64,000 nt of DNA from Dehalococcoidia bacterium. GTDB taxonomy: Bacteria; Chloroflexota; Dehalococcoidia; SHYB01. The DNA lies in assembly GCA_965219875.1 (NCBI GenBank), contig CBDCOW010000001.1, positions 604,062 to 668,061 of the forward strand. Reading direction: 5' to 3'. Below the pieces are notes generated by a model. That model saw only the letters and a program-made list of their open reading frames with translations, searched no databases and was not told where the DNA came from. Shown here piece by piece: positions 4,042 to 62,150 of this stretch. Numbering within the stretch: position 1 is the stretch's first letter; every line of letters begins with the position of its first letter. Both the position numbers and the translations under genes were made by a program.

Positions 4042-4118
4042 CGCCAACGTAGCTCAGCTGGTCAGAGCGGGCGCTTCATAAGCGCTAGGTCGCAGGTTCA
4101 AGTCCTGCCGTTGGCACC
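4042..4118 (+). tRNA. tRNA-Met (anticodon CAT, elongator-type; could be lysidine-modified Ile2)
   Basis: cloverleaf folded by hand: acceptor GCCAACG/CGTTGGC, anticodon loop TTCATAA, T-loop TTCAAGT, encoded CCA. Confidence 0.8.
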
Positions 4119-4878: not shown

Positions 4879-5247
4879 GTGGCCACGGCGGAGCAACATC
4901 GAGCGATTAGCACTCAGTTCTTGGAGCACGCCGAGGACGAATTACGTAAAGGCGATCTGCTTCAGGCCTCCGAGAAGGCATGGGGGGCGATTTCCCACTA
5001 TGTGAACTCCGTTGCCCGTCAGCGGAACTGGCCTTTGGGATCGCACAGCCGACTGATCGCAAATGCCAACAAGCTAATCAGCGGCGACCCAGCCAACGCG
5101 AGCCATAAGCGGAGGCTGCTCCGATCAATCGAGGCGCTACATGCTAACTTCTATCAAGCATTCTTGGACGAGGATTCGGTGGGCGAGGGCATTCAGGACG
5201 CCAAGGAACTTATCAGAACCCTAGAAGTCCCTAACACGGACACATAG
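4879..5247 (+). CDS. HEPN-like protein (Rx4-6H motif)
   Basis: 122 aa all-helical; RSIEALH matches HEPN R-x4-6-H motif near C-terminus; tightly coupled to preceding ORF. Confidence 0.45.
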   Translation: MATAEQHRAISTQFLEHAEDELRKGDLLQASEKAWGAISHYVNSVARQRNWPLGSHSRLIANANKLISGDPANASHKRRLLRSIEALHANFYQAFLDEDSVGEGIQDAKELIRTLEVPNTDT

Positions 5248-7634: not shown

Positions 7635-7665
7635 GCTAGGTCGCAGGTTCAAGTCCTGCCCACCA
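7635..7665 (+). repeat. degenerate direct copy of tRNA-Met 3' part (26/26 nt GCTAGGTCGCAGGTTCAAGTCCTGCC, then CACCA after a 5-nt gap)
   Basis: exact 26-nt identity with tRNA-Met 4083-4108 (variable loop + T-arm); att-like remnant. Confidence 0.5.
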
Positions 7666-9719: not shown

Positions 9720-10160
9720 CGCACCGCCCTCCCGTTCCCCCTCCCGAATGCCGCTCTGCACCTCTCTCCGTCCGGAGACCTTTGCGTAACTCCGCCAACG
9801 GAGAGTTCGCAAACCTCCGGTCTTGGCGAGGGGAGCGGGTGAGCGGTCTTACCTCCTCTCCCAACGGAGACCTTTGCAAAACTCCGTCGAGGGGAGGAAC
9901 GCCGCCCGCGGCCTTGGGAAAGGGAGCCGGCGCGGGGTTTTACCCCCCTCTCCCGCTGGGTGAGGGCGGGGGGAGGCGGGGGCCGCGCGACCTTGCTGAA
10001 GCCCGCCCGCGTCAGTCGCTTCGGCTCACAGGGGTCCCCCCGGAGAGAGGGCACGCCCCAGCACCTGATAACGGTACCCGCCCGATCCCAAGGCCATCGA
10101 CCCACCCGCCGCTGGCCACGCCGTTGACCGGCGTCCGGAGACCGTCTACGCTCCGCACCA
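9720..10160. repeat. repeat-rich intergenic region with two direct copies of the 17-mer GGAGACCTTTGC(G/A)(T/A)AAC (9774, 9866) and G/C-rich CTCTCCC..GGGAGAGG palindromes
   Basis: read directly; same 17-mer as IS5-element termini. Confidence 0.6.
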
Positions 10161-14563: not shown

Positions 14564-14654
14564 CGCCCACCTCCCGTCCGCCGGCTCAGGCCGGCGCAGC
14601 GGCCCGAACCGTACCCCAATGCCGCACCATTGACCACCCGTCCCACCTCAAGCC

Positions 14655-14745
14655 TCTCCCTTCTGGAGACCTTTGCACAACCGCCCGCGGGCAAGCATGG
14701 GTGGGGCCGGGAGGTCTTGCCTCTTCTCCCCACGGGAGAAGATTG
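14655..14745. repeat. copy of ~90-bp IS-end-related element (CTGGAGACCTTTGCACAACCGCCCGCGGGCAAGCATGGGTGGGGCCGGGAGGTCTTGCCTCTTCTCCCCACGGGAG)
   Basis: near-identical to sequences flanking the IS5 element at 15325-15412 and, inverted, 16594-16681. Confidence 0.6.
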
Positions 14746-14859
14746 AGATGAGGGGCCCCCTCGCAACCGCCACGGGTTATCGAAGCCCGCCACCTTCGCG
14801 GTCAGTCACCCCGGTTACGCAAAGGTCTCCTCCCGGGAAGACTGAGCGCGGGCAGCGCT

Positions 14860-15225
14860 CTACCGAGGAGTACGCGGATAGTCCACCACCTCCAGCGGCT
14901 GCAACGACTCCGGCTCGATCTCCTGAAACGAGTGCAGCGCGCCGACGGTCAGGAAATCGACGTGTCGGCCCTCGCCGAACGACGCGCGGGCGTGCGCCTT
15001 GATATCGGCGATCGACGCCTCGATGTCGTCGCTCTCGATCTCGTACAGCGCCAGGTACTGCGACGGCCCCACCCCCGGGTTGAGGTTGAAGAACCGCCGG
15101 GCGCTGACCACGCCCTTCGACTTCAGCAAGTCGGGCAGGTGCGTGTGCGTGTACCACCGGTTGAACTCCTCGTCCCGCTGCCGCTCGACGCAGTTGGTGT
15201 AGGCAAGAAAAATCCCCTTCGGCAT
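14860..15225 (-). CDS. hypothetical protein (possibly YciI/Dabb-like alpha+beta barrel)
   Basis: 121 aa with reasonable codon usage and composition; no firm family call. Confidence 0.35.
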   Translation of the reverse strand: MPKGIFLAYTNCVERQRDEEFNRWYTHTHLPDLLKSKGVVSARRFFNLNPGVGPSQYLALYEIESDDIEASIADIKAHARASFGEGRHVDFLTVGALHSFQEIEPESLQPLEVVDYPRTPR

Positions 15226-15394
15226 GGTCTCCTCCCGTCGGCTTGGCCCCGCCGCGGCCAGCCGTCCAAGATCTTAGTGCAACACCCGCCCAGCGGGCGA
15301 GTTCCCTCCGGCCTCTCCCCTGCTGGAGACCTTTGCGCAACCCGCCTGCGGGCAAGCATGGGTGGGGCCGAGAGGTCTTGCCTCTTCTCCCCAC

Positions 15395-16610
15395 GGAGAC
15401 CTTTGCGTAACCGGGATGTGGTTGTGGTGGTGACGCGGGGGCCTGTTCGAGGCCATGAGGGTGGTGTTGTTTGCGGACTCGGCGGCTTGAGGAGCCCCCT
15501 GCGAGGACCGATCGGGCCCTCAGCGGGCCCGATTTTGGCCCCGCCAGGCTGCTAGGGCGCACTCCGCCCTGGGACGGGTGCGTCGACAGCCAGGAGGCGC
15601 GCCGCCCGGCGCAGGTTGTAGGCCATGCACTTGAGCCACAGCTCCGTCGCGTTCCGCTCCAGTCCCATGTACCGCACCTGTCCATACCCGTAGCAGCGCT
15701 TCAGGGTTCCGAACACCTTCTCGACCGGCGCACGCACGCGGGAGATCAGCGCGTTCCGCCGCGTTTGCCAATGCGGCAGCTCCCGCTGGTGCTTGTGCGA
15801 CCGATGCATGATCCGGTCTTTGATCCCCCGCGACTTCAGCCGGGCGCGCCGTTCCTTCGACTCGTAGGCCTTGTCCGCGTAGACCGCCGCCTCGTCTCCC
15901 GACACCAAGGCGTCCGCCGCCTCGGTATCGTTCACGTTCGCGCTCGTCAGCACCGCCTTCCGTATCAGTCCCGACTCCCCGTCCACTCCCAGGTGCGCCT
16001 TGTAGCCAAAGTGGGCCGCGCCCCCTTTCCGCGTCCATCCCGCGTCGGGGTCGGTCGCGCTCCGCGCCCCAGGGCCTTCCTCCACCGACGGCCGCCGCGC
16101 CTGCGCCTTCACGATCGTCGCGTCGAGGAGCGTGCCCTTCTTCACCAGCAGCCGCTGCTCCTCAAACTGGCGGTTCACTTCGGTGAACAGCCGCTCGGTG
16201 AGCCCCCGTTCGGTCAACGCCTTCCGGAACCGACTGATCGTCGAGTGGTCCGGCGTCCCGTCCGTCCAGCCCAGGTTCACGAATCGGCGGAAAGAGATCC
16301 GGTCCCGTAACGCCTCCTCCATCGCCGGGTCCGACGCGGTGTACCACTGCTGCAGCAGCGCGATCTTCACCATCGTCAGCGGGGGGTAGCCCGGCCTGCC
16401 CTCCGGTGCCGCGTGCACCTCTCCTACCACCTTCCCGATCCGTTCCCAGTCCAGCATCGCGTCGATCCGTTCTAGCGTCTTGTTCGTCCCAAGCCCTTCC
16501 GGCACAAAGGCGTCCACGAATGTTGGCAGACCGGTCTGCTGGTGCATGCTTCCCTCCATCCGAGCGCTGCCCTCTACTCTGCCCCGCCCGTCCAGTTTTG
16601 CAAAGGTCTC
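15395..16610 (-). mobile_element. IS5-family insertion sequence (~1.2 kb), 17-bp terminal inverted repeats GGAGACCTTTGCGTAAC / GTTTTGCAAAGGTCTCC; second subterminal copy of the same motif ~70 bp outside each end (15325, 16665)
   Basis: DDE transposase ORF flanked by inverted copies of the 17-mer; length typical of IS5 family; no target-site duplication visible. Confidence 0.6.
15552..16559 (-). CDS. IS5-family DDE transposase
   Basis: architecture and motifs parallel E. coli IS5 InsH (N-terminal ...FVDAFVPEGL...IDAMLDWERI, central WTRKGGAAHFGYKAHLGVD, C-terminal RVRAPVEKVFGTLKRCYGYGQVRYMGLERN). Confidence 0.8.
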   Translation of the reverse strand: MEGSMHQQTGLPTFVDAFVPEGLGTNKTLERIDAMLDWERIGKVVGEVHAAPEGRPGYPPLTMVKIALLQQWYTASDPAMEEALRDRISFRRFVNLGWTDGTPDHSTISRFRKALTERGLTERLFTEVNRQFEEQRLLVKKGTLLDATIVKAQARRPSVEEGPGARSATDPDAGWTRKGGAAHFGYKAHLGVDGESGLIRKAVLTSANVNDTEAADALVSGDEAAVYADKAYESKERRARLKSRGIKDRIMHRSHKHQRELPHWQTRRNALISRVRAPVEKVFGTLKRCYGYGQVRYMGLERNATELWLKCMAYNLRRAARLLAVDAPVPGRSAP

Positions 16611-16971
16611 CAACGGGAGAAGAGGCAAGACTTCCCGGCCCCACCATGCTTGAGCCCTCGGGCGGGTTGCGCAAAGGTCTCCAGTGGGAGAGGGCGTTGA
16701 GACCCCCGCCGCGACTGTCCCATCCGCGGTAGGCCTGATCGGCCTCGCGTGTTACGCCACCATGGCCGGCGGGTCGTCCGGCGGACGCGGGGACGGCCGT
16801 TGGGGCCGCCTGAGTAAAGAACATACGTTCGCTAAGGTAACGATAAACCCCCTTGACAAGCCCTGTCAAGTATCATTTCGCCCCGAAATCCGTTTTCGCG
16901 GGGAATCCGTCAAGTATGATGGAGAGAGAAAATCCGCCGCCTTCTCCGCGGCCTCTCGAAGGAGACCCCCA

Positions 16972-17157
16972 ATGCCCATCATCCGAGTCGAAATGTGGAG
17001 CGGCCGGACCAAAGACCAGAAAGCCGAGCTCGCCGAAGCCCTCACCGACGCCATGGTCCGCATCGGCAACACCTCCGCCGACCACACCATCGTCGTCTTC
17101 CAAAGCATTGACAAGGAGGACTGGGCGGAAGGCGGCAAGCTGGCTTCGGAGCTGTGA
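16972..17157 (+). CDS. 4-oxalocrotonate tautomerase family enzyme
   Basis: 61 aa MPIIRVEMWSGRTKDQKAELAEALTDAMV...; Pro1 after Met, GGAG RBS upstream. Confidence 0.65.
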   Translation: MPIIRVEMWSGRTKDQKAELAEALTDAMVRIGNTSADHTIVVFQSIDKEDWAEGGKLASEL

Positions 17158-17294
17158 CTCGGCGCCTCCCCTCCCGGGGTCCGCCTTAAACCTCAACCCT
17201 CTCTGGGGGAGACTGAGAGAAGGCACGCGCCCCCAGGCGCACGGGCGCCCGCGGGGCGCCCCGTTTGCAGGTTCCGCGGAAGAAGGGCCGAGCC

Positions 17295-18947
17295 ATGGCC
17301 GAACACTACCGGGCGAGCTTCACGATCGAAGGGCCGGAGGCGCGTGGGCTGCCGCTGCTGGAGCAGGCGGCCCACGCGGTCCGCAGTTGGGCTTGGGAGC
17401 AGTTCGGCCAGCCTGAAGCGGATGCGTCGGTGGAGCAGTGGGAGGGCGACAACGGGACGCTGCGCATTGAGGCCGACCGGCTGGAGGAGGCGGGTTTCTT
17501 TGCGTTGTCCTGGGAGCAGCCTACCGCGTGGCTGCTTGAGTTCCGTCTCGCGACGCAGGGTGAAGCGGTCGAGGTGGAAGTCGAGGTCCAGGGGCCAAGC
17601 GAGGGCGCCGACGACCTCCATGCCGGACCGCCGCGAGCGCTGCTCGACGCCCTGCTTGACCGGTTCGAGTGCCGGAGCGACGGGCGGCGGCTCTCGACCC
17701 AGGCGGCGTGGGTGGAGCCGGAGGACGCAGCCGACTTTGTTCGCGATACGGTGTTCGGCCGTGAGCGACGAATGCCGTTGGTGGTCGTAACCGAAGACCG
17801 TTCCGGCCGGAGCGTAGTAAGCGCGGACCATTTGCAGACTCGTCTTCTCGGGCTGGCAAGGGTGGTCGGCTACGATGCCGAGACGGCTGAAGCGGTGAAC
17901 AAGGAGTTAGAGGCGCCAGTCCAGTCGGGGGCAGGCTATCCACTGGTGCGGGTGAACGAGCGCGTGCATGAGAAGATCGGCGACGACTACAGGCTCGCCT
18001 CGTGGACCAACTACTACAAATGGCTCAACGCTCAACTGGCGTGCTTCGCGGGAGCAGTGCGGGTCTATTTCCCCGGGTGCTCCGTAGGCGACGAGTCATG
18101 GAAGCACCGGTATTGGCCCATGGAGCGGGTCCGCACGGCGGGGCGCAAGTTCTGGGTCGAGTTACGGGATGCCTGCATGTCCTCGTTTCCGGCAGGGCCT
18201 CGAATCTACGACGAGGTCTTGCGGCGCATCCGCAGGCTGGAGCACGAACAACTCCTGGAGGAACGGCGCCAGAATTCGGAGACCGAAGAGCTTCTCAACG
18301 AATGGCGAGATGGGCTCGCCGAATATGAGGAACGCGAGGTCGAGCATCAGCAGGCTAAGGCGCGGCTACAGTCGGAAGTCAAGGAGAGGGACGCGCAGAT
18401 CCAACGGCTCATGGTGGATAACCATGAACTCAGCCGTCAGTTGCGCGACCCCGACTTCGGTTCCGCCGTGGAGGAGTCTGACCATGACTGGGTTGACCGC
18501 CCGGCGAGGCAGGAGACCCTGTTAGGCGCCGTGCGTGAGGCCAAGAAACTGAAAGGGTTGAAGTTTCTTCCCAGTGCGAGTGAGTCCGCTAAGGGATCAC
18601 TGTACCAGGGGCCGAGACGGTTGCAGAACGTACGACGGGTGTTTGGGAAGATGGCGGAGTGCGCCCAAACGCGGGCGCGAGGTCAGCTAGGGAAGACCGT
18701 AGCGGGCTGGTTCGCTGACGAGAAAATCGACTATGCGCCCTTCGAGAGCGAGGCGACGATGAACAAGTTTGGCTATCAACGACGGTTCTTCGACGCTGGC
18801 CGCTGGGTGGAAATGCAGGAGCACATCAAGTTGGGGAAGGGCGGCCCGGAAACATCCCTGCGGATTCACTTCTGCTGGAGCGACGATGACGAGGTGTTAC
18901 TGGTGGGGCACGTCGGGCGGCATCTGGACATAGTGTCGTCGGGCTGA
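17295..18947 (+). CDS. hypothetical 550-aa protein with central coiled-coil and conserved-looking C-terminal RIHFCWSDDDEVLLVGHVGRH segment
   Basis: long ORF with good codon usage; ATG at 17295; no recognisable NTPase, nuclease or HTH motif. Confidence 0.5.
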   Translation: MAEHYRASFTIEGPEARGLPLLEQAAHAVRSWAWEQFGQPEADASVEQWEGDNGTLRIEADRLEEAGFFALSWEQPTAWLLEFRLATQGEAVEVEVEVQGPSEGADDLHAGPPRALLDALLDRFECRSDGRRLSTQAAWVEPEDAADFVRDTVFGRERRMPLVVVTEDRSGRSVVSADHLQTRLLGLARVVGYDAETAEAVNKELEAPVQSGAGYPLVRVNERVHEKIGDDYRLASWTNYYKWLNAQLACFAGAVRVYFPGCSVGDESWKHRYWPMERVRTAGRKFWVELRDACMSSFPAGPRIYDEVLRRIRRLEHEQLLEERRQNSETEELLNEWRDGLAEYEEREVEHQQAKARLQSEVKERDAQIQRLMVDNHELSRQLRDPDFGSAVEESDHDWVDRPARQETLLGAVREAKKLKGLKFLPSASESAKGSLYQGPRRLQNVRRVFGKMAECAQTRARGQLGKTVAGWFADEKIDYAPFESEATMNKFGYQRRFFDAGRWVEMQEHIKLGKGGPETSLRIHFCWSDDDEVLLVGHVGRHLDIVSSG

Positions 18948-50069: not shown

Positions 50070-50290
50070 GCGCATTCGACAAACGGCTGCTTTCGAGGGC
50101 GTCCCGAAATGGGGCGCCCTCGTTTTTTGCCGTTGACCCTCTCCTTTGGAGACCTGTGCAAAGCGTTAGCGCGGAGGGAACGGGCGCCCACAAGGGGCGC
50201 CCCTACGGGAGGGGATGGATTCCCGCGAAAGCGGGAAGATCTCCTTTGGGACACGCTTGCGTGACCCGCTTGGCGGCATCAAACAACCAT
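50070..50290. repeat. REP/MITE-like repeat cluster: GGAGACCTGTGCAAAGC variant, GGGCGCCCACAAGGGGCGCCCCTACGGGAGGG hairpin module, GGATGGATTCCCGCGAAAGCGGGAAG hairpin module
   Basis: same modules recur at 53776, 57208, 58670, 58835. Confidence 0.6.
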
Positions 50291-50400
50291 TATCTACTTG
50301 ACGTTTTCTAGCAGGGGTGCCAAGATCAGGCTATGCGGTTGGGAGGGCTGCCTTAGCGGTCCGTTGAGACATGGTTCTCGCCCGGCCGCCTTTTCTTTGT

Positions 50401-53759: not shown

Positions 53760-53860
53760 GGGGATGGCCCCCACGGGACCGGGCGCCCACAAGGGGCGGC
53801 CACAAGGGACCGGGCGCCCACAAGGGGCGCCCCTACGGGAGAGGCTAGTTTGAGAAGCAG
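53760..53860. repeat. two tandem copies of the GGGCGCCCACAAGGGGCG(C/G)CC hairpin module between purM and purH
   Basis: read directly. Confidence 0.6.
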
Positions 53861-57099: not shown

Positions 57100-57260
57100 T
57101 TGCCTAACCGGGCTCTAACTCTATCATAATGGGGGCGTTCGTCCGGCCTGGGCGGGCTCTCTCGGGGATGGGGCGATTCGCGTATCGCCCCTACGGGAGG
57201 CCGGAGGGGAGGGCGCCCACAAGGGACGCCCCTACGGGAAGGGAACTATCCGGAAAGGAC
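57100..57260. repeat. REP-like hairpin modules (GGCGATTCGCGTATCGCCCCTACGGG; GGGCGCCCACAAGGGACGCCCCTACGGG) between gap and the M20 gene
   Basis: read directly. Confidence 0.55.
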
Positions 57261-58551: not shown

Positions 58552-58755
58552 GGAGACCTTTGCGTAACCGGGGTCGAGGAGGGAGAAGCGCCCTGTCGGG
58601 CGCTCGCGCGCCTAGCGGCGCGCGCCCTCTCTCAAATCTCCCCCAGAGGGGGAGAGGCCGGAGGGGAGGGCGACCACAAGGGTCGCCCCTACGGGAGGGA
58701 TGGATTCCCGCTTTCGCGGGAATGACGGATATGGTCAGGTTACGCAAGGGTCTCC
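58552..58755. mobile_element. MITE-like element (204 bp) bounded by inverted copies of the IS 17-mer (GGAGACCTTTGCGTAACC ... GGTTACGCAAGGGTCTCC), containing the CGCTCGCGCGCCTAGCGGCGCGCGCC, GGGCGACCACAAGGGTCGCCCC and GGATTCCCGCTTTCGCGGGAAT hairpin modules
   Basis: read directly; termini identical to the IS5 element ends at 15395/16610. Confidence 0.55.
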
Positions 58756-58808
58756 AGCGGGAGAGGGGGCAGACCGCCCCGCGCCACCCGTTTTCCGGCT
58801 CACCGGCG

Positions 58809-58900
58809 GGTTACGCAGAGGTCTCCGGAGGGAGGGCGCCCACAAGGGACGCCCCTACGGGCTGCGCTGTTGCGCGGCGCTGGTTGTTGCAAAGGTCTCA
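58809..58900. repeat. two further inverted solo copies of the 17-mer (58809-58826, 58886-58900) flanking another GGGCGCCCACAAGGGACGCCCC module
   Basis: read directly. Confidence 0.55.
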
Positions 58901-61967: not shown

Positions 61968-61976
61968 CTCCCAAAA

Positions 61977-62150
61977 GGAGACCTTTGCGTAACCTTGGGC
62001 CTTGCCCCACGAGGCCGTTCGGGGGTAGGAACGGGCGATTCGCGAATCGCCCCTACGGAGACCTTGGCGTAACTTGGGGCGAGCAGGGAACAGCGCCCTA
62101 CGGGCGCTCGCGCGCCTGGCGGCGCGCGCCCTCTCTCAATCTCCCCATGA
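61977..62150. repeat. repeat cluster: two direct 17-mers (61977, 62057), GGCGATTCGCGAATCGCCCCTACGG module, CGCTCGCGCGCCTGGCGGCGCGCGCC module
   Basis: read directly. Confidence 0.55.

Follow-up and report, generated by a model that had tools for sequence, protein, structure and literature searches.

Insertion sequences (ISs) of the IS5 subgroup, such as IS5 of E. coli, are elements of ~1.2 kb with a single DDE transposase of ~330 aa (domains DUF772 and DDE_Tnp_1), short terminal inverted repeats starting GG and a small target duplication. IS5 itself is usually described with a 4-bp duplication at YTAR sites. Here we analysed a 64,000-nucleotide stretch of a Dehalococcoidia bacterium genome (contig CBDCOW010000001.1, positions 604,062 to 668,061; hereafter the window, in whose own coordinates positions are given), which contains an IS5-family element at 15395-16611 and dispersed copies of the 17-bp motif found at its ends. 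The element resembles the IS5 subgroup in its length, transposase and terminal repeats, as its family does in the small duplication, and, as with bacterial MITEs (miniature transposable elements with inverted repeats), it is accompanied by gene-less elements that share its ends alone. It differs in that its family targets the loop, variable in sequence, of a palindrome, with a duplication of 3 bp (4 bp in some targets). The reading that we favour, with a probability of roughly 75%, is that the IS5 element lies in the loop of a hairpin inside a cognate MITE, and that the other 17-mers are the ends or fragments of MITEs.

ISs that target repetitive extragenic palindromic (REP) sequences include IS1397 and ISKpn1 of the IS3 family, ISPpu9, ISPpu10 and ISPa11 of the IS110 family, and ISRm22, and REP-associated ISs are known in five families, IS5 included (Tobes and Pareja 2006, PMC1525189). 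The insertion point of ISRm22 is the axis of a highly palindromic REP consensus (PMC1525189). The family described here is like these elements in that all copies lie within an intergenic palindromic repeat and the two flanks suffice to reconstruct the repeat that was interrupted. However, the transposase lineage and host phylum differ, at least two unrelated palindrome types are used, and the window IS has abundant same-end MITEs carrying target hairpins, none being described for the ISs in PMC1525189.

The window also recalls bacterial interspersed mosaic elements (BIMEs) and REP doublets forming hairpins (REPINs), which are likewise intergenic mosaics of GC-rich hairpins, of several families and clustered downstream of genes. 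REPINs are thought to be moved by REP-associated tyrosine (RAYT; Y1/HUH) transposases and are without DDE-type terminal repeats, whereas the mobile units of the window are bounded by IS5-type ends and the palindromes serve as targets. Among eukaryotes, the PIF/Harbinger transposase is related to IS5; the elements target TAA/TTA and need a second, Myb-like protein, and Tourist-type MITEs share PIF/Harbinger ends and are mobilised in trans. DDE/DDD transposons by type, PIF/Harbinger elements carry terminal inverted repeats and make a 3-bp duplication (PMC2213677). By features, and not by sequence comparison, the window family is like PIF/Harbinger and the Tourist-type MITEs in its inverted repeats, 3-bp duplication and frequent nested insertions, and unlike them in being non-eukaryotic and in using a hairpin loop. 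It is an undescribed Chloroflexota family within well-known classes, namely IS5 elements with MITEs and REP-targeting ISs.

An intact IS5-family element and its termini

At 15395-16611 this Chloroflexota (Dehalococcoidia-like) genome carries an intact IS5-family insertion sequence, the features of which are as follows.

15395..16611, minus strand: IS5-family insertion sequence, 1217 bp, with a single transposase gene (bounded by inverted 17-20-mers; DNA similarity to relatives)
15552..16547, minus strand: transposase coding sequence, 331 aa, with an upstream alternative ATG at 16559 (profile matches; full length against 331-aa homologues)
15395..15414, plus strand: transposase-distal terminal inverted repeat, GGAGACCTTTGCGTAACCGG (a GCGTAAC-type end also lies downstream of the transposase in loci L001-L007, below)
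16592..16611, minus strand: transposase-proximal terminal inverted repeat, GGAGACCTTTGCAAAACTGG on the minus strand (a GCAAAAC-type end also lies upstream of the transposase in L001-L007)
15392..15394, no strand: left copy of the target-site duplication, CAC, 3 bp (the empty paralogous hairpin at 14723-14741 has a CAC loop)
16612..16614, no strand: right copy of the target-site duplication, AAC, one mismatch to CAC (sequence reading and comparison with related copies)

The IS5-like transposase gene that an initial annotation of the window had placed on the minus strand at 15552-16559 is real. Its product matched NCBIfam NF033581 (transpos_IS5_4; E 2e-87, 293 bits, cutoff 140), Pfam PF01609 (DDE_Tnp_1; 1e-30, 107 bits, cutoff 23) and, as N-terminal domain, Pfam PF05598 (DUF772; 5e-25, 88 bits, cutoff 23), and it aligned at full length with 331-aa homologues at identities of up to 92%. 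These homologues set the start at the ATG at 16547, the open reading frame (ORF) to 16559 giving a 335-aa version. Candidate DDE motifs are LDAT (141), ADKAY (224) and PVEKVF (274), with RAPVEKVFGTLK from about residue 271; we take these to hold the DDE residues and the R(3)E(6)K signature around the catalytic E, assigned by eye from known IS5 motifs rather than from a structure. The two IS ends agree at 17 of 20 positions, the 12-bp tip being identical, and the flanks CAC and AAC match at two of three positions as a target-site duplication.

The assembly index searched had no entry for either version of this transposase or for an adjacent 121-aa ORF. Close relatives were found by a homologue search on metagenome contigs, and contigs of two relatives were fetched as loci L001-L007. 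These hold eight IS copies of 1208-1226 bp (89-90% amino acid and ~85% DNA identity to the window IS), each bounded on the upstream side of the transposase by GGAGACCTTTGCAAAAC and on the downstream side by the reverse complement of GGAGACCTTTGCGTAAC. DNA similarity between the window IS and these copies ends 11-17 bp beyond the termini, and the surplus bases comprise a shared palindrome arm only. The copies in Chloroflexota genomes at L015, L070, L081 and L083 (61-68% amino acid identity) are also full-length ISs with the same end motif, and all 12 related copies (61-90%) terminate in the 17-mer irrespective of their flanks. Moreover, L001-L006 have one 17-mer per IS end, an identical 331-aa transposase at several sites, and flanks that differ beyond the short palindrome arm. 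Because related copies end in the same motif with one 17-mer per end, the inner pair at 15395 and 16611 marks the true termini. The 17-mer is thus borne out as the terminal inverted repeat of the IS, and the inner pair as its bounds, with the size corrected from 1216 bp to 1217 bp. The initial annotation had asked whether other full-length copies end in different repeats; on the related contigs, all end alike.

On one of these contigs (ERZ25766727 ctg316835; L002/L003), two IS copies in inverted orientation bracket a methyl-accepting chemotaxis protein (MCP)-like sensor gene. L004 and L006 have flanks near-identical to the L002/L003 sites with one IS only (in opposite orientation in L004), and their duplications differ (CAA vs CAG/CTG).

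Insertion into palindrome loops

A feature overlooked in the initial annotation is that every copy is housed in the loop of a REP-like palindrome. All IS copies are flanked by CYTCTCCC-NNN-IS-NNN-GGGAGARG or by ATTCCTGC-NNNN-IS-NNNN-GCAGGAAT, an example being CCTTCTCCC-CAA-IS-CAA-GGGAGAAGG, and likewise with CAG, TCT and GGG; L015 has the duplication TCAA, and L081 CCCC within the ATTCCTGC/GCAGGAAT palindrome. Complementary arms abut the duplicated loop on both sides in 13/13 IS copies examined. The repeats at the element edges (CAA/CAA, CAG/CAG, TCT/TCT, GGG/GGG, AGA/AGA, TCAA/TCAA and CCCC/CCCC) are direct and non-palindromic, and they are therefore target duplications and not part of longer inverted repeats. 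We also considered the palindrome arms as part of the IS ends. This was rejected, since identical transposases occur with different arms and the 3-4 bases that separate arm from end are repeated directly, not inversely.

The length of the duplication follows the target. It is 3 bp in targets of the CTCTCCC-N3-GGGAGAG type and 4 bp in those of the ATTCCCGC-N4-GCGGGAAT type, the entire loop being duplicated in both, so that the 4-bp duplication anticipated in the initial annotation holds for the second type and not for the first. Related full-length ISs have a perfect 3- or 4-bp duplication at 7 of 11 other sites. For innermost inverted 17-mer pairs, taken from the window and the fetched loci, the figure is 21 of 44, whereas 2000 permutations of the right flanks gave 2.2 on average and 9 at most. 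Uninterrupted target hairpins were found at 14723-14741 of the window, at 185-208 of L128 (a Rhizobium plasmid locus) and in a spacer of L200 and L201 (orthologous contigs), the last two described below.

The outer motif pair and the probable host MITE

The initial annotation had reported a second copy of the motif ~70 bp outside each end of the IS, and these copies are present, 70-71 bp beyond the ends. The IS flanks are mutually inverted (84% over 108 bp). The features around them are listed here together with a neighbouring element.

15325..15391, plus strand: left arm of the host MITE, comprising the end 17-mer (15325-15341), ~50 bp and the left stem GGTCTTGCCTCTTCTCCC of a central hairpin; 84% complementary to the right arm
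16615..16682, minus strand: right arm of the host MITE, comprising the right stem GGGAGAAGAGGCAAGAC, ~50 bp and the end 17-mer (16666-16682); inverted repeat of the left arm
15312..15324, no strand: half palindrome CCTCTCCC(C) and spacer, directly left of the host MITE; complementary to 16686-16694
16683..16694, no strand: spacer AGT and half palindrome GGGAGAGGG, directly right of the host MITE; the complementary arm
14665..14830, no strand: MITE of 166 bp with inverted 17-mer ends and flanks TCT/TCC; its left arm is paralogous to the host MITE

The left IS flank (15305-15396) is 91% identical to 14646-14735, and the outer module is present at 14646-14742 without any IS. At the exact position that the IS occupies in the host MITE, this paralogue has an uninterrupted hairpin at 14723-14741, CTTCTCCC-CAC-GGGAGAAG. 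Joining both IS flanks in silico gives a ~141-bp palindromic element with 17-mer ends and a long central hairpin. At L007 a related IS lies in a homologous element, with an outer 17-mer 73 bp past one end; in silico removal of this IS leaves a sequence that aligns with the 14665-14830 MITE, with the loop GGG vs GTG. Since the IS-free module carries an uninterrupted hairpin, the outer motifs are taken as the ends of a MITE that the IS entered, and not as a second IS site. As read from these comparisons, then, the outer 17-mer pair is the two ends of a ~141-bp palindromic MITE whose central hairpin received the IS. An intact palindromic A-A MITE, i.e. the host element minus the IS, was not found in the sampled loci, which yielded its arms and the central hairpin only.

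The initial annotation had instead proposed two transposase-binding repeats per terminus, which amounts to an IS with compound termini of ~88 bp, each with two 17-mers, and an element that spans 15325-16682. The inverted repetition of the flanks over ~108 bp, with two motif copies each, would fit such a structure, as would the outer copy of L007. We consider it very unlikely, however. The copies of L001-L006, with their identical 331-aa transposase and one 17-mer per end, have unrelated sequence past the palindrome arm; the outer module at 14646-14742 is free of any IS and its hairpin is unbroken at the IS position; on its other side the L007 IS is flanked by a different module, whose 17-mer lies at a distance of 271 bp; and in related copies the 3-bp duplication lies at the inner boundary. 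The proposal of paired binding repeats was therefore abandoned in favour of an IS within a host MITE.

Dispersed motif copies in the window

Allowing up to three mismatches, GGAGACCTTTGCAAAAC (the same 17-mer as GGAGACCTTTGCNNAAC) was found 15 times in the 64-kb window against a chance expectation of 0.01, and 0/100 shuffles reached 15. The copies located by this mismatch search are as follows.

9774, 9866, 14665, 15325, 15395, 50148, 58552, 61977 and 62057, plus strand: 17-mer copies
14814, 16595, 16666, 58739, 58810 and 58884 (degenerate), minus strand: 17-mer copies

Thirteen of these are non-IS end copies, spread over six intergenic sites of the window. All of the copies first listed exist, at positions good to 1-2 bases: 16594-16610 becomes 16595-16611, 16665 becomes 16666, 58738 becomes 58739, 58809 becomes 58810 and 58886 becomes 58884. 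The inverted copy at 14814-14830, which pairs with 14665 to form the 166-bp element, had been missed. The statement that the dispersed copies are always intergenic also stands, as ORFs with coding-type GC content at third codon positions contain 0/15 copies, and the sole overlap is with a stop-to-stop extension upstream of the transposase start.

The copies lie mostly downstream of a gene end and always adjoin palindromic repeats. This intergenic setting would suit a 17-mer that is host sequence of pre-existing repeats, for instance a protein-binding or regulatory site, beside which the IS inserted or which it captured. Such an origin is highly improbable given that the motif forms the exact termini of each full-length IS across 61-90% amino acid identity, in two unrelated target types, and that similar ends (GGGGACTGTTGCAAAA and GAGGGCTTTGCG) occur in Alphaproteobacterial relatives at 44% identity. 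In addition, an Rfam gathering scan of the window returned no family over the 17-mer repeats, which also rules out a known RNA family as their identity. The 17-mer was not found in the bacterial literature searched.

MITEs and repeat mosaics

The interpretation of the dispersed repeats as MITEs appears reasonable, since short gene-less elements with the same ends and perfect duplications are common in related Chloroflexota. There, the same ends bound elements of 123-124, 134, 143-144 and 181-236 bp with diverse interiors, the ends alone being shared. Of the short elements in related genomes, 14 show a loop of 3 or 4 bp perfectly duplicated, in palindromes of the same two types; perfect MITE duplications are TTT, TCT, AGA, CCA, GAAA, GCAG, GAAG, GCAA and GTCC. 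The MITEs of the window (166 bp and ~141 bp) and the elements of related loci have ends identical to the IS over 12-17 bp and no coding capacity. A perfect hairpin (stem of at least 7 bp, loop of 3-5 nt), mostly of the two target types, is present inside 24 of 25 MITEs compared with 0.8 from shuffles. Because MITEs thus carry target-type hairpins internally, nested and truncated mosaics are found. An inverted 17-mer pair at L119 2766-3944 was considered as a full-length IS of this family and rejected, as it encloses an IS30-like transposase (336 aa); it is probably a different IS nested in a MITE.

The remaining repeat loci of the window are the following.

9774..9957, plus strand: two direct ~92-bp units, each with a 17-mer (9774, 9866), ~60 bp and a left palindrome arm, with no clear right end (motif and repeat comparison)
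50148..50164, plus strand: solo variant 17-mer GGAGACCTGTGCAAAGC, with CCTCTCC-TTT before it and other hairpin repeats after it (motif search)
58552..58826, no strand: 275-bp composite of a ~170-bp MITE family common to L095 and L035, with ends at 58552 (plus) and 58826 (minus) (repeat comparison)
61977..62146, plus strand: two direct end-bearing fragments (repeat comparison)

The composite at 58552-58826 seems to be interrupted, at about 58657-58758, by a ~100-bp segment with a single 17-mer end (58739-58755) and with GGGAGAGG arms in direct orientation on its two sides, and a further degenerate 17-mer end lies at 58884-58900. Two inverted copies do bracket 204 bp at 58552-58755, which the initial annotation had presented as a classic MITE. 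This unit has no target-site duplication (GTG vs AGC), however, and it is probably a chimera that forms part of the 275-bp composite. Of the two end-bearing fragments, 61970-62056 is 89% identical to the right arm of a MITE in L110, and 62057-62146 is 88% identical to 58552-58643 and 89% to L095.

Ladders of three to five direct end-bearing units (33, 84 or about 255-270 bp) were seen at L063 7272-7493, L070 2241-2552 and L084 871-2047. Some are closed by a single inverted end, and their form points to repeated nesting with later deletion, or else to tandem duplication. A third hairpin family, GGGCGCCC-ACAA-GGGGCGCCCCTACGGG, occurs at 50172-50215, 53805-53844, 57197-57244, 58654-58699 and 58825-58861, and also in MITEs of L110 and L064. 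An Rfam DUF3800-VI RNA motif lies at 50336-50388 on the plus strand (60.6 bits, gathering 35), ~170 bp downstream of the variant 17-mer at 50148.

Distribution and close relatives

Genome contigs were scanned with the 17-mer, giving at least 119 stretches. Among the matches listed, metagenome-assembled genomes of Chloroflexota, Dehalococcoidia or Anaerolineae supply 76/119, and a half palindrome precedes 81/109 sites in Chloroflexota vs 7/43 in the remaining loci. In 596 Gb, 15 specified bases should match about 1100 times by chance, and isolated matches outside Chloroflexota were taken as chance.

The orthologous region is present on two contigs of ERZ21830300 (L200 and L201), whose DNA there is 86-92% identical to that of the window, and their neighbouring oxidoreductase (LLM protein) is 96% and 85% identical at the protein level, respectively. 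A scan of metagenome contigs with this LLM protein gave no orthologue closer than 62%. The 17-mer is absent from 13 kb of L200 and of L201. Both lack window 14645-14860, which comprises the MITE at 14665-14830 and ~50 bp of palindrome arms. In the spacer that matches 9730-10110, both have an uninterrupted hairpin, CCTCTCTCCC-TCT-GGGAGAG, where the window has CCTCTCTCC-GTCC followed by 17-mer units; the spacer is otherwise rearranged. The comparison of insertions between relatives that had been suggested for this locus thus showed repeat content to differ from L200/L201 at two sites, with no precisely empty site bounded by 17-mers. Judged from these alignments, the repeats turn over on a short evolutionary scale, and the comparison is compatible with gain as well as with loss. 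An independent short-read contig from the window's own strain (Logan ERR13605531, 3831 bp; L127) ends 11-27 bp into the 14665 MITE, and this MITE is therefore not an assembly artefact.

The 698-kb contig shared with L200 (ERZ21830300:ctg717115l) also holds an internally deleted IS (L202 1428-2455; 1028 bp, 268-aa ORF) with the same ends intact, an intermediate form found in a close relative. Its flanking loops, TCT(G) and AGA, are inversely related, as expected from recombination between IS copies, and there is no duplication.

Synteny with L200 and L201 breaks off near 15291, about 20 bp short of the IS/MITE complex. On the right-hand side of the break, the relatives have an Amidohydro_2 gene, and the window has a 4-oxalocrotonate tautomerase-like ORF (16972-17157) and a HEC-07-like ORF. 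The latter (17265-18947, plus strand, 560 aa), which adjoins the IS complex on its right, was matched by neither Pfam nor NCBIfam; it matches the PADLOC models HEC-07 (1.9e-25) and NsnC (3.5e-11), candidate anti-phage defence proteins, and the local GC drops to about 0.60-0.62. Elsewhere in the window, a perfect 26-bp direct repeat occurs at 4084-4109 and 7635-7660, with one copy within a tRNA (4043-4116). The 3.5 kb between the repeats holds a HEPN/PaREP1-like ORF (4879-5247) and an old yellow enzyme (OYE)-type flavin oxidoreductase, and no integrase was seen there.

A model for the locus

Taken together, these data point to the following sequence of events. The DDE transposase would bind the terminal inverted repeats of 17-20 bp (GGAGACCTTTGC-RY/AA-AAC), and the element would enter a short GC-rich palindrome at its loop. 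The joins, staggered across the two stem-loop junctions, would then duplicate the loop, here 3 bp (CAC/AAC). The palindrome entered appears to be the hairpin at the centre of a palindromic MITE of ~141 bp that ends in the same 17-mers, and a second motif copy would lie ~70 bp outside each IS end because the IS entered at this point. The host MITE itself seems to lie between the halves of another palindrome (CCTCTCCC ... GGGAGAGG). The remaining 17-mer copies would be ends or fragments of MITEs of the same family, with new copies landing within old ones, and deletion or recombination between direct palindrome arms would give one-ended units, ladders and mosaics. For the units at 9774/9866 and 61977/62057, the deletion would have occurred between direct right palindrome arms made by insertion. 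It is plausible that the MITEs are moved in trans by the transposase of this IS.

Several observations weigh against this model. No perfect duplication occurs in the window, the flanks being CAC/AAC for the IS, TCT/TCC for 14665-14830, GCT/AGT for the host MITE and GTG/AGC for 58552-58755. The MITEs share just ~18 bp with the IS, which is little for elements derived from it by internal deletion. Several copies are one-ended or in direct ladders, which goes beyond simple transposition. Finally, the gap at 14645-14860 includes a palindrome arm and is not bounded by 17-mers, i.e. it is not a clean empty MITE site; in this comparison among close relatives, a deletion on their side may account for it.

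Some of these points would be expected if the short repeats were relatives of the IS ends that are no longer mobile and were spread by recombination, duplication and deletion among palindromes, as a BIME-like mosaic. The lack of a perfectly duplicated short element in the window fits such a history, as do the one-ended units and direct ladders (9774/9866, 61977/62057 and L063), the chimeric structure of 58552-58826 and an orthologous gap wider than the element. We nonetheless regard immobile repeats as unlikely, because 14 short elements in related genomes do have perfect loop duplications, 21 of 44 pairs have them where 2.2 are expected, the window IS is intact, and repeat content differs between genomes that are just 8-14% diverged. 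An IS lodged in a cognate MITE remains our preferred reading.

Plasmid-borne relatives and significance

No plasmid-borne IS5 element has a transposase more than 45% identical to that of the window IS. Even so, insertion takes the same form in two of its nearest plasmid-borne relatives. One of these, an IS5 relative (L128 318-1575; 44% amino acid identity) on plasmid pRetKim5b of Rhizobium sp. Kim5, has the ends GGGGACTGTTGCAAAA and GGGGACTGTTGCATAA. It is flanked as CACTTCTCCCC-GAC-IS-GAC-GGGGAGAAGTG, i.e. a 3-bp duplication in the hairpin CTTCTCCCC-GAC-GGGGAGAAG, of which an uninterrupted copy lies at 185-208, 130 bp from the IS. The plasmid collection held nothing close to this relative from Sinorhizobium, and no link to ISRm22 was made. 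A further relative, on an Azospirillum argentinense plasmid (L130 260-1485), has the ends GAGGGCTTTGCG and the flanks CAGCC-ATTCC-IS-ATTCC-GGCTG, which look like a 5-bp loop duplication in another palindrome. Because the Rhizobium and Azospirillum plasmid relatives insert alike, insertion into palindrome loops looks like a property of the clade.

Pairs of ISs and MITEs, and ISs that target REP sequences, are already established, and current concepts are unchanged by this locus. What the locus contributes is a lineage of IS5 elements that keep strictly to palindrome loops and have self-nesting MITEs, together with a concrete explanation for the intergenic repeats that are dense in Dehalococcoidia-like genomes from soil and groundwater. 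Such repeats break short-read assemblies, as in the Logan contig that ends in a MITE, and generate many spurious ORFs. Its mechanistic potential lies in the duplication, which equals the loop in two different palindromes; the contrast of 3 with 4 bp bears on whether the joining positions are fixed by the structure of the target or by its sequence. We suggest, tentatively and with considerable doubt, that the IS5 clade comprising the Chloroflexota elements and their Rhizobium and Azospirillum relatives may recognise hairpin or cruciform geometry rather than base sequence, joining at stem-loop junctions. If so, the loop would set the duplication, at 3 bp in CTCTCCC-N3-GGGAGAG, 4 bp in ATTCCCGC-N4-GCGGGAAT and possibly 5 bp in Azospirillum. 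With its hairpin-bearing MITEs the family would build its own landing sites, and this could be the main source of the intergenic repeat mosaics.

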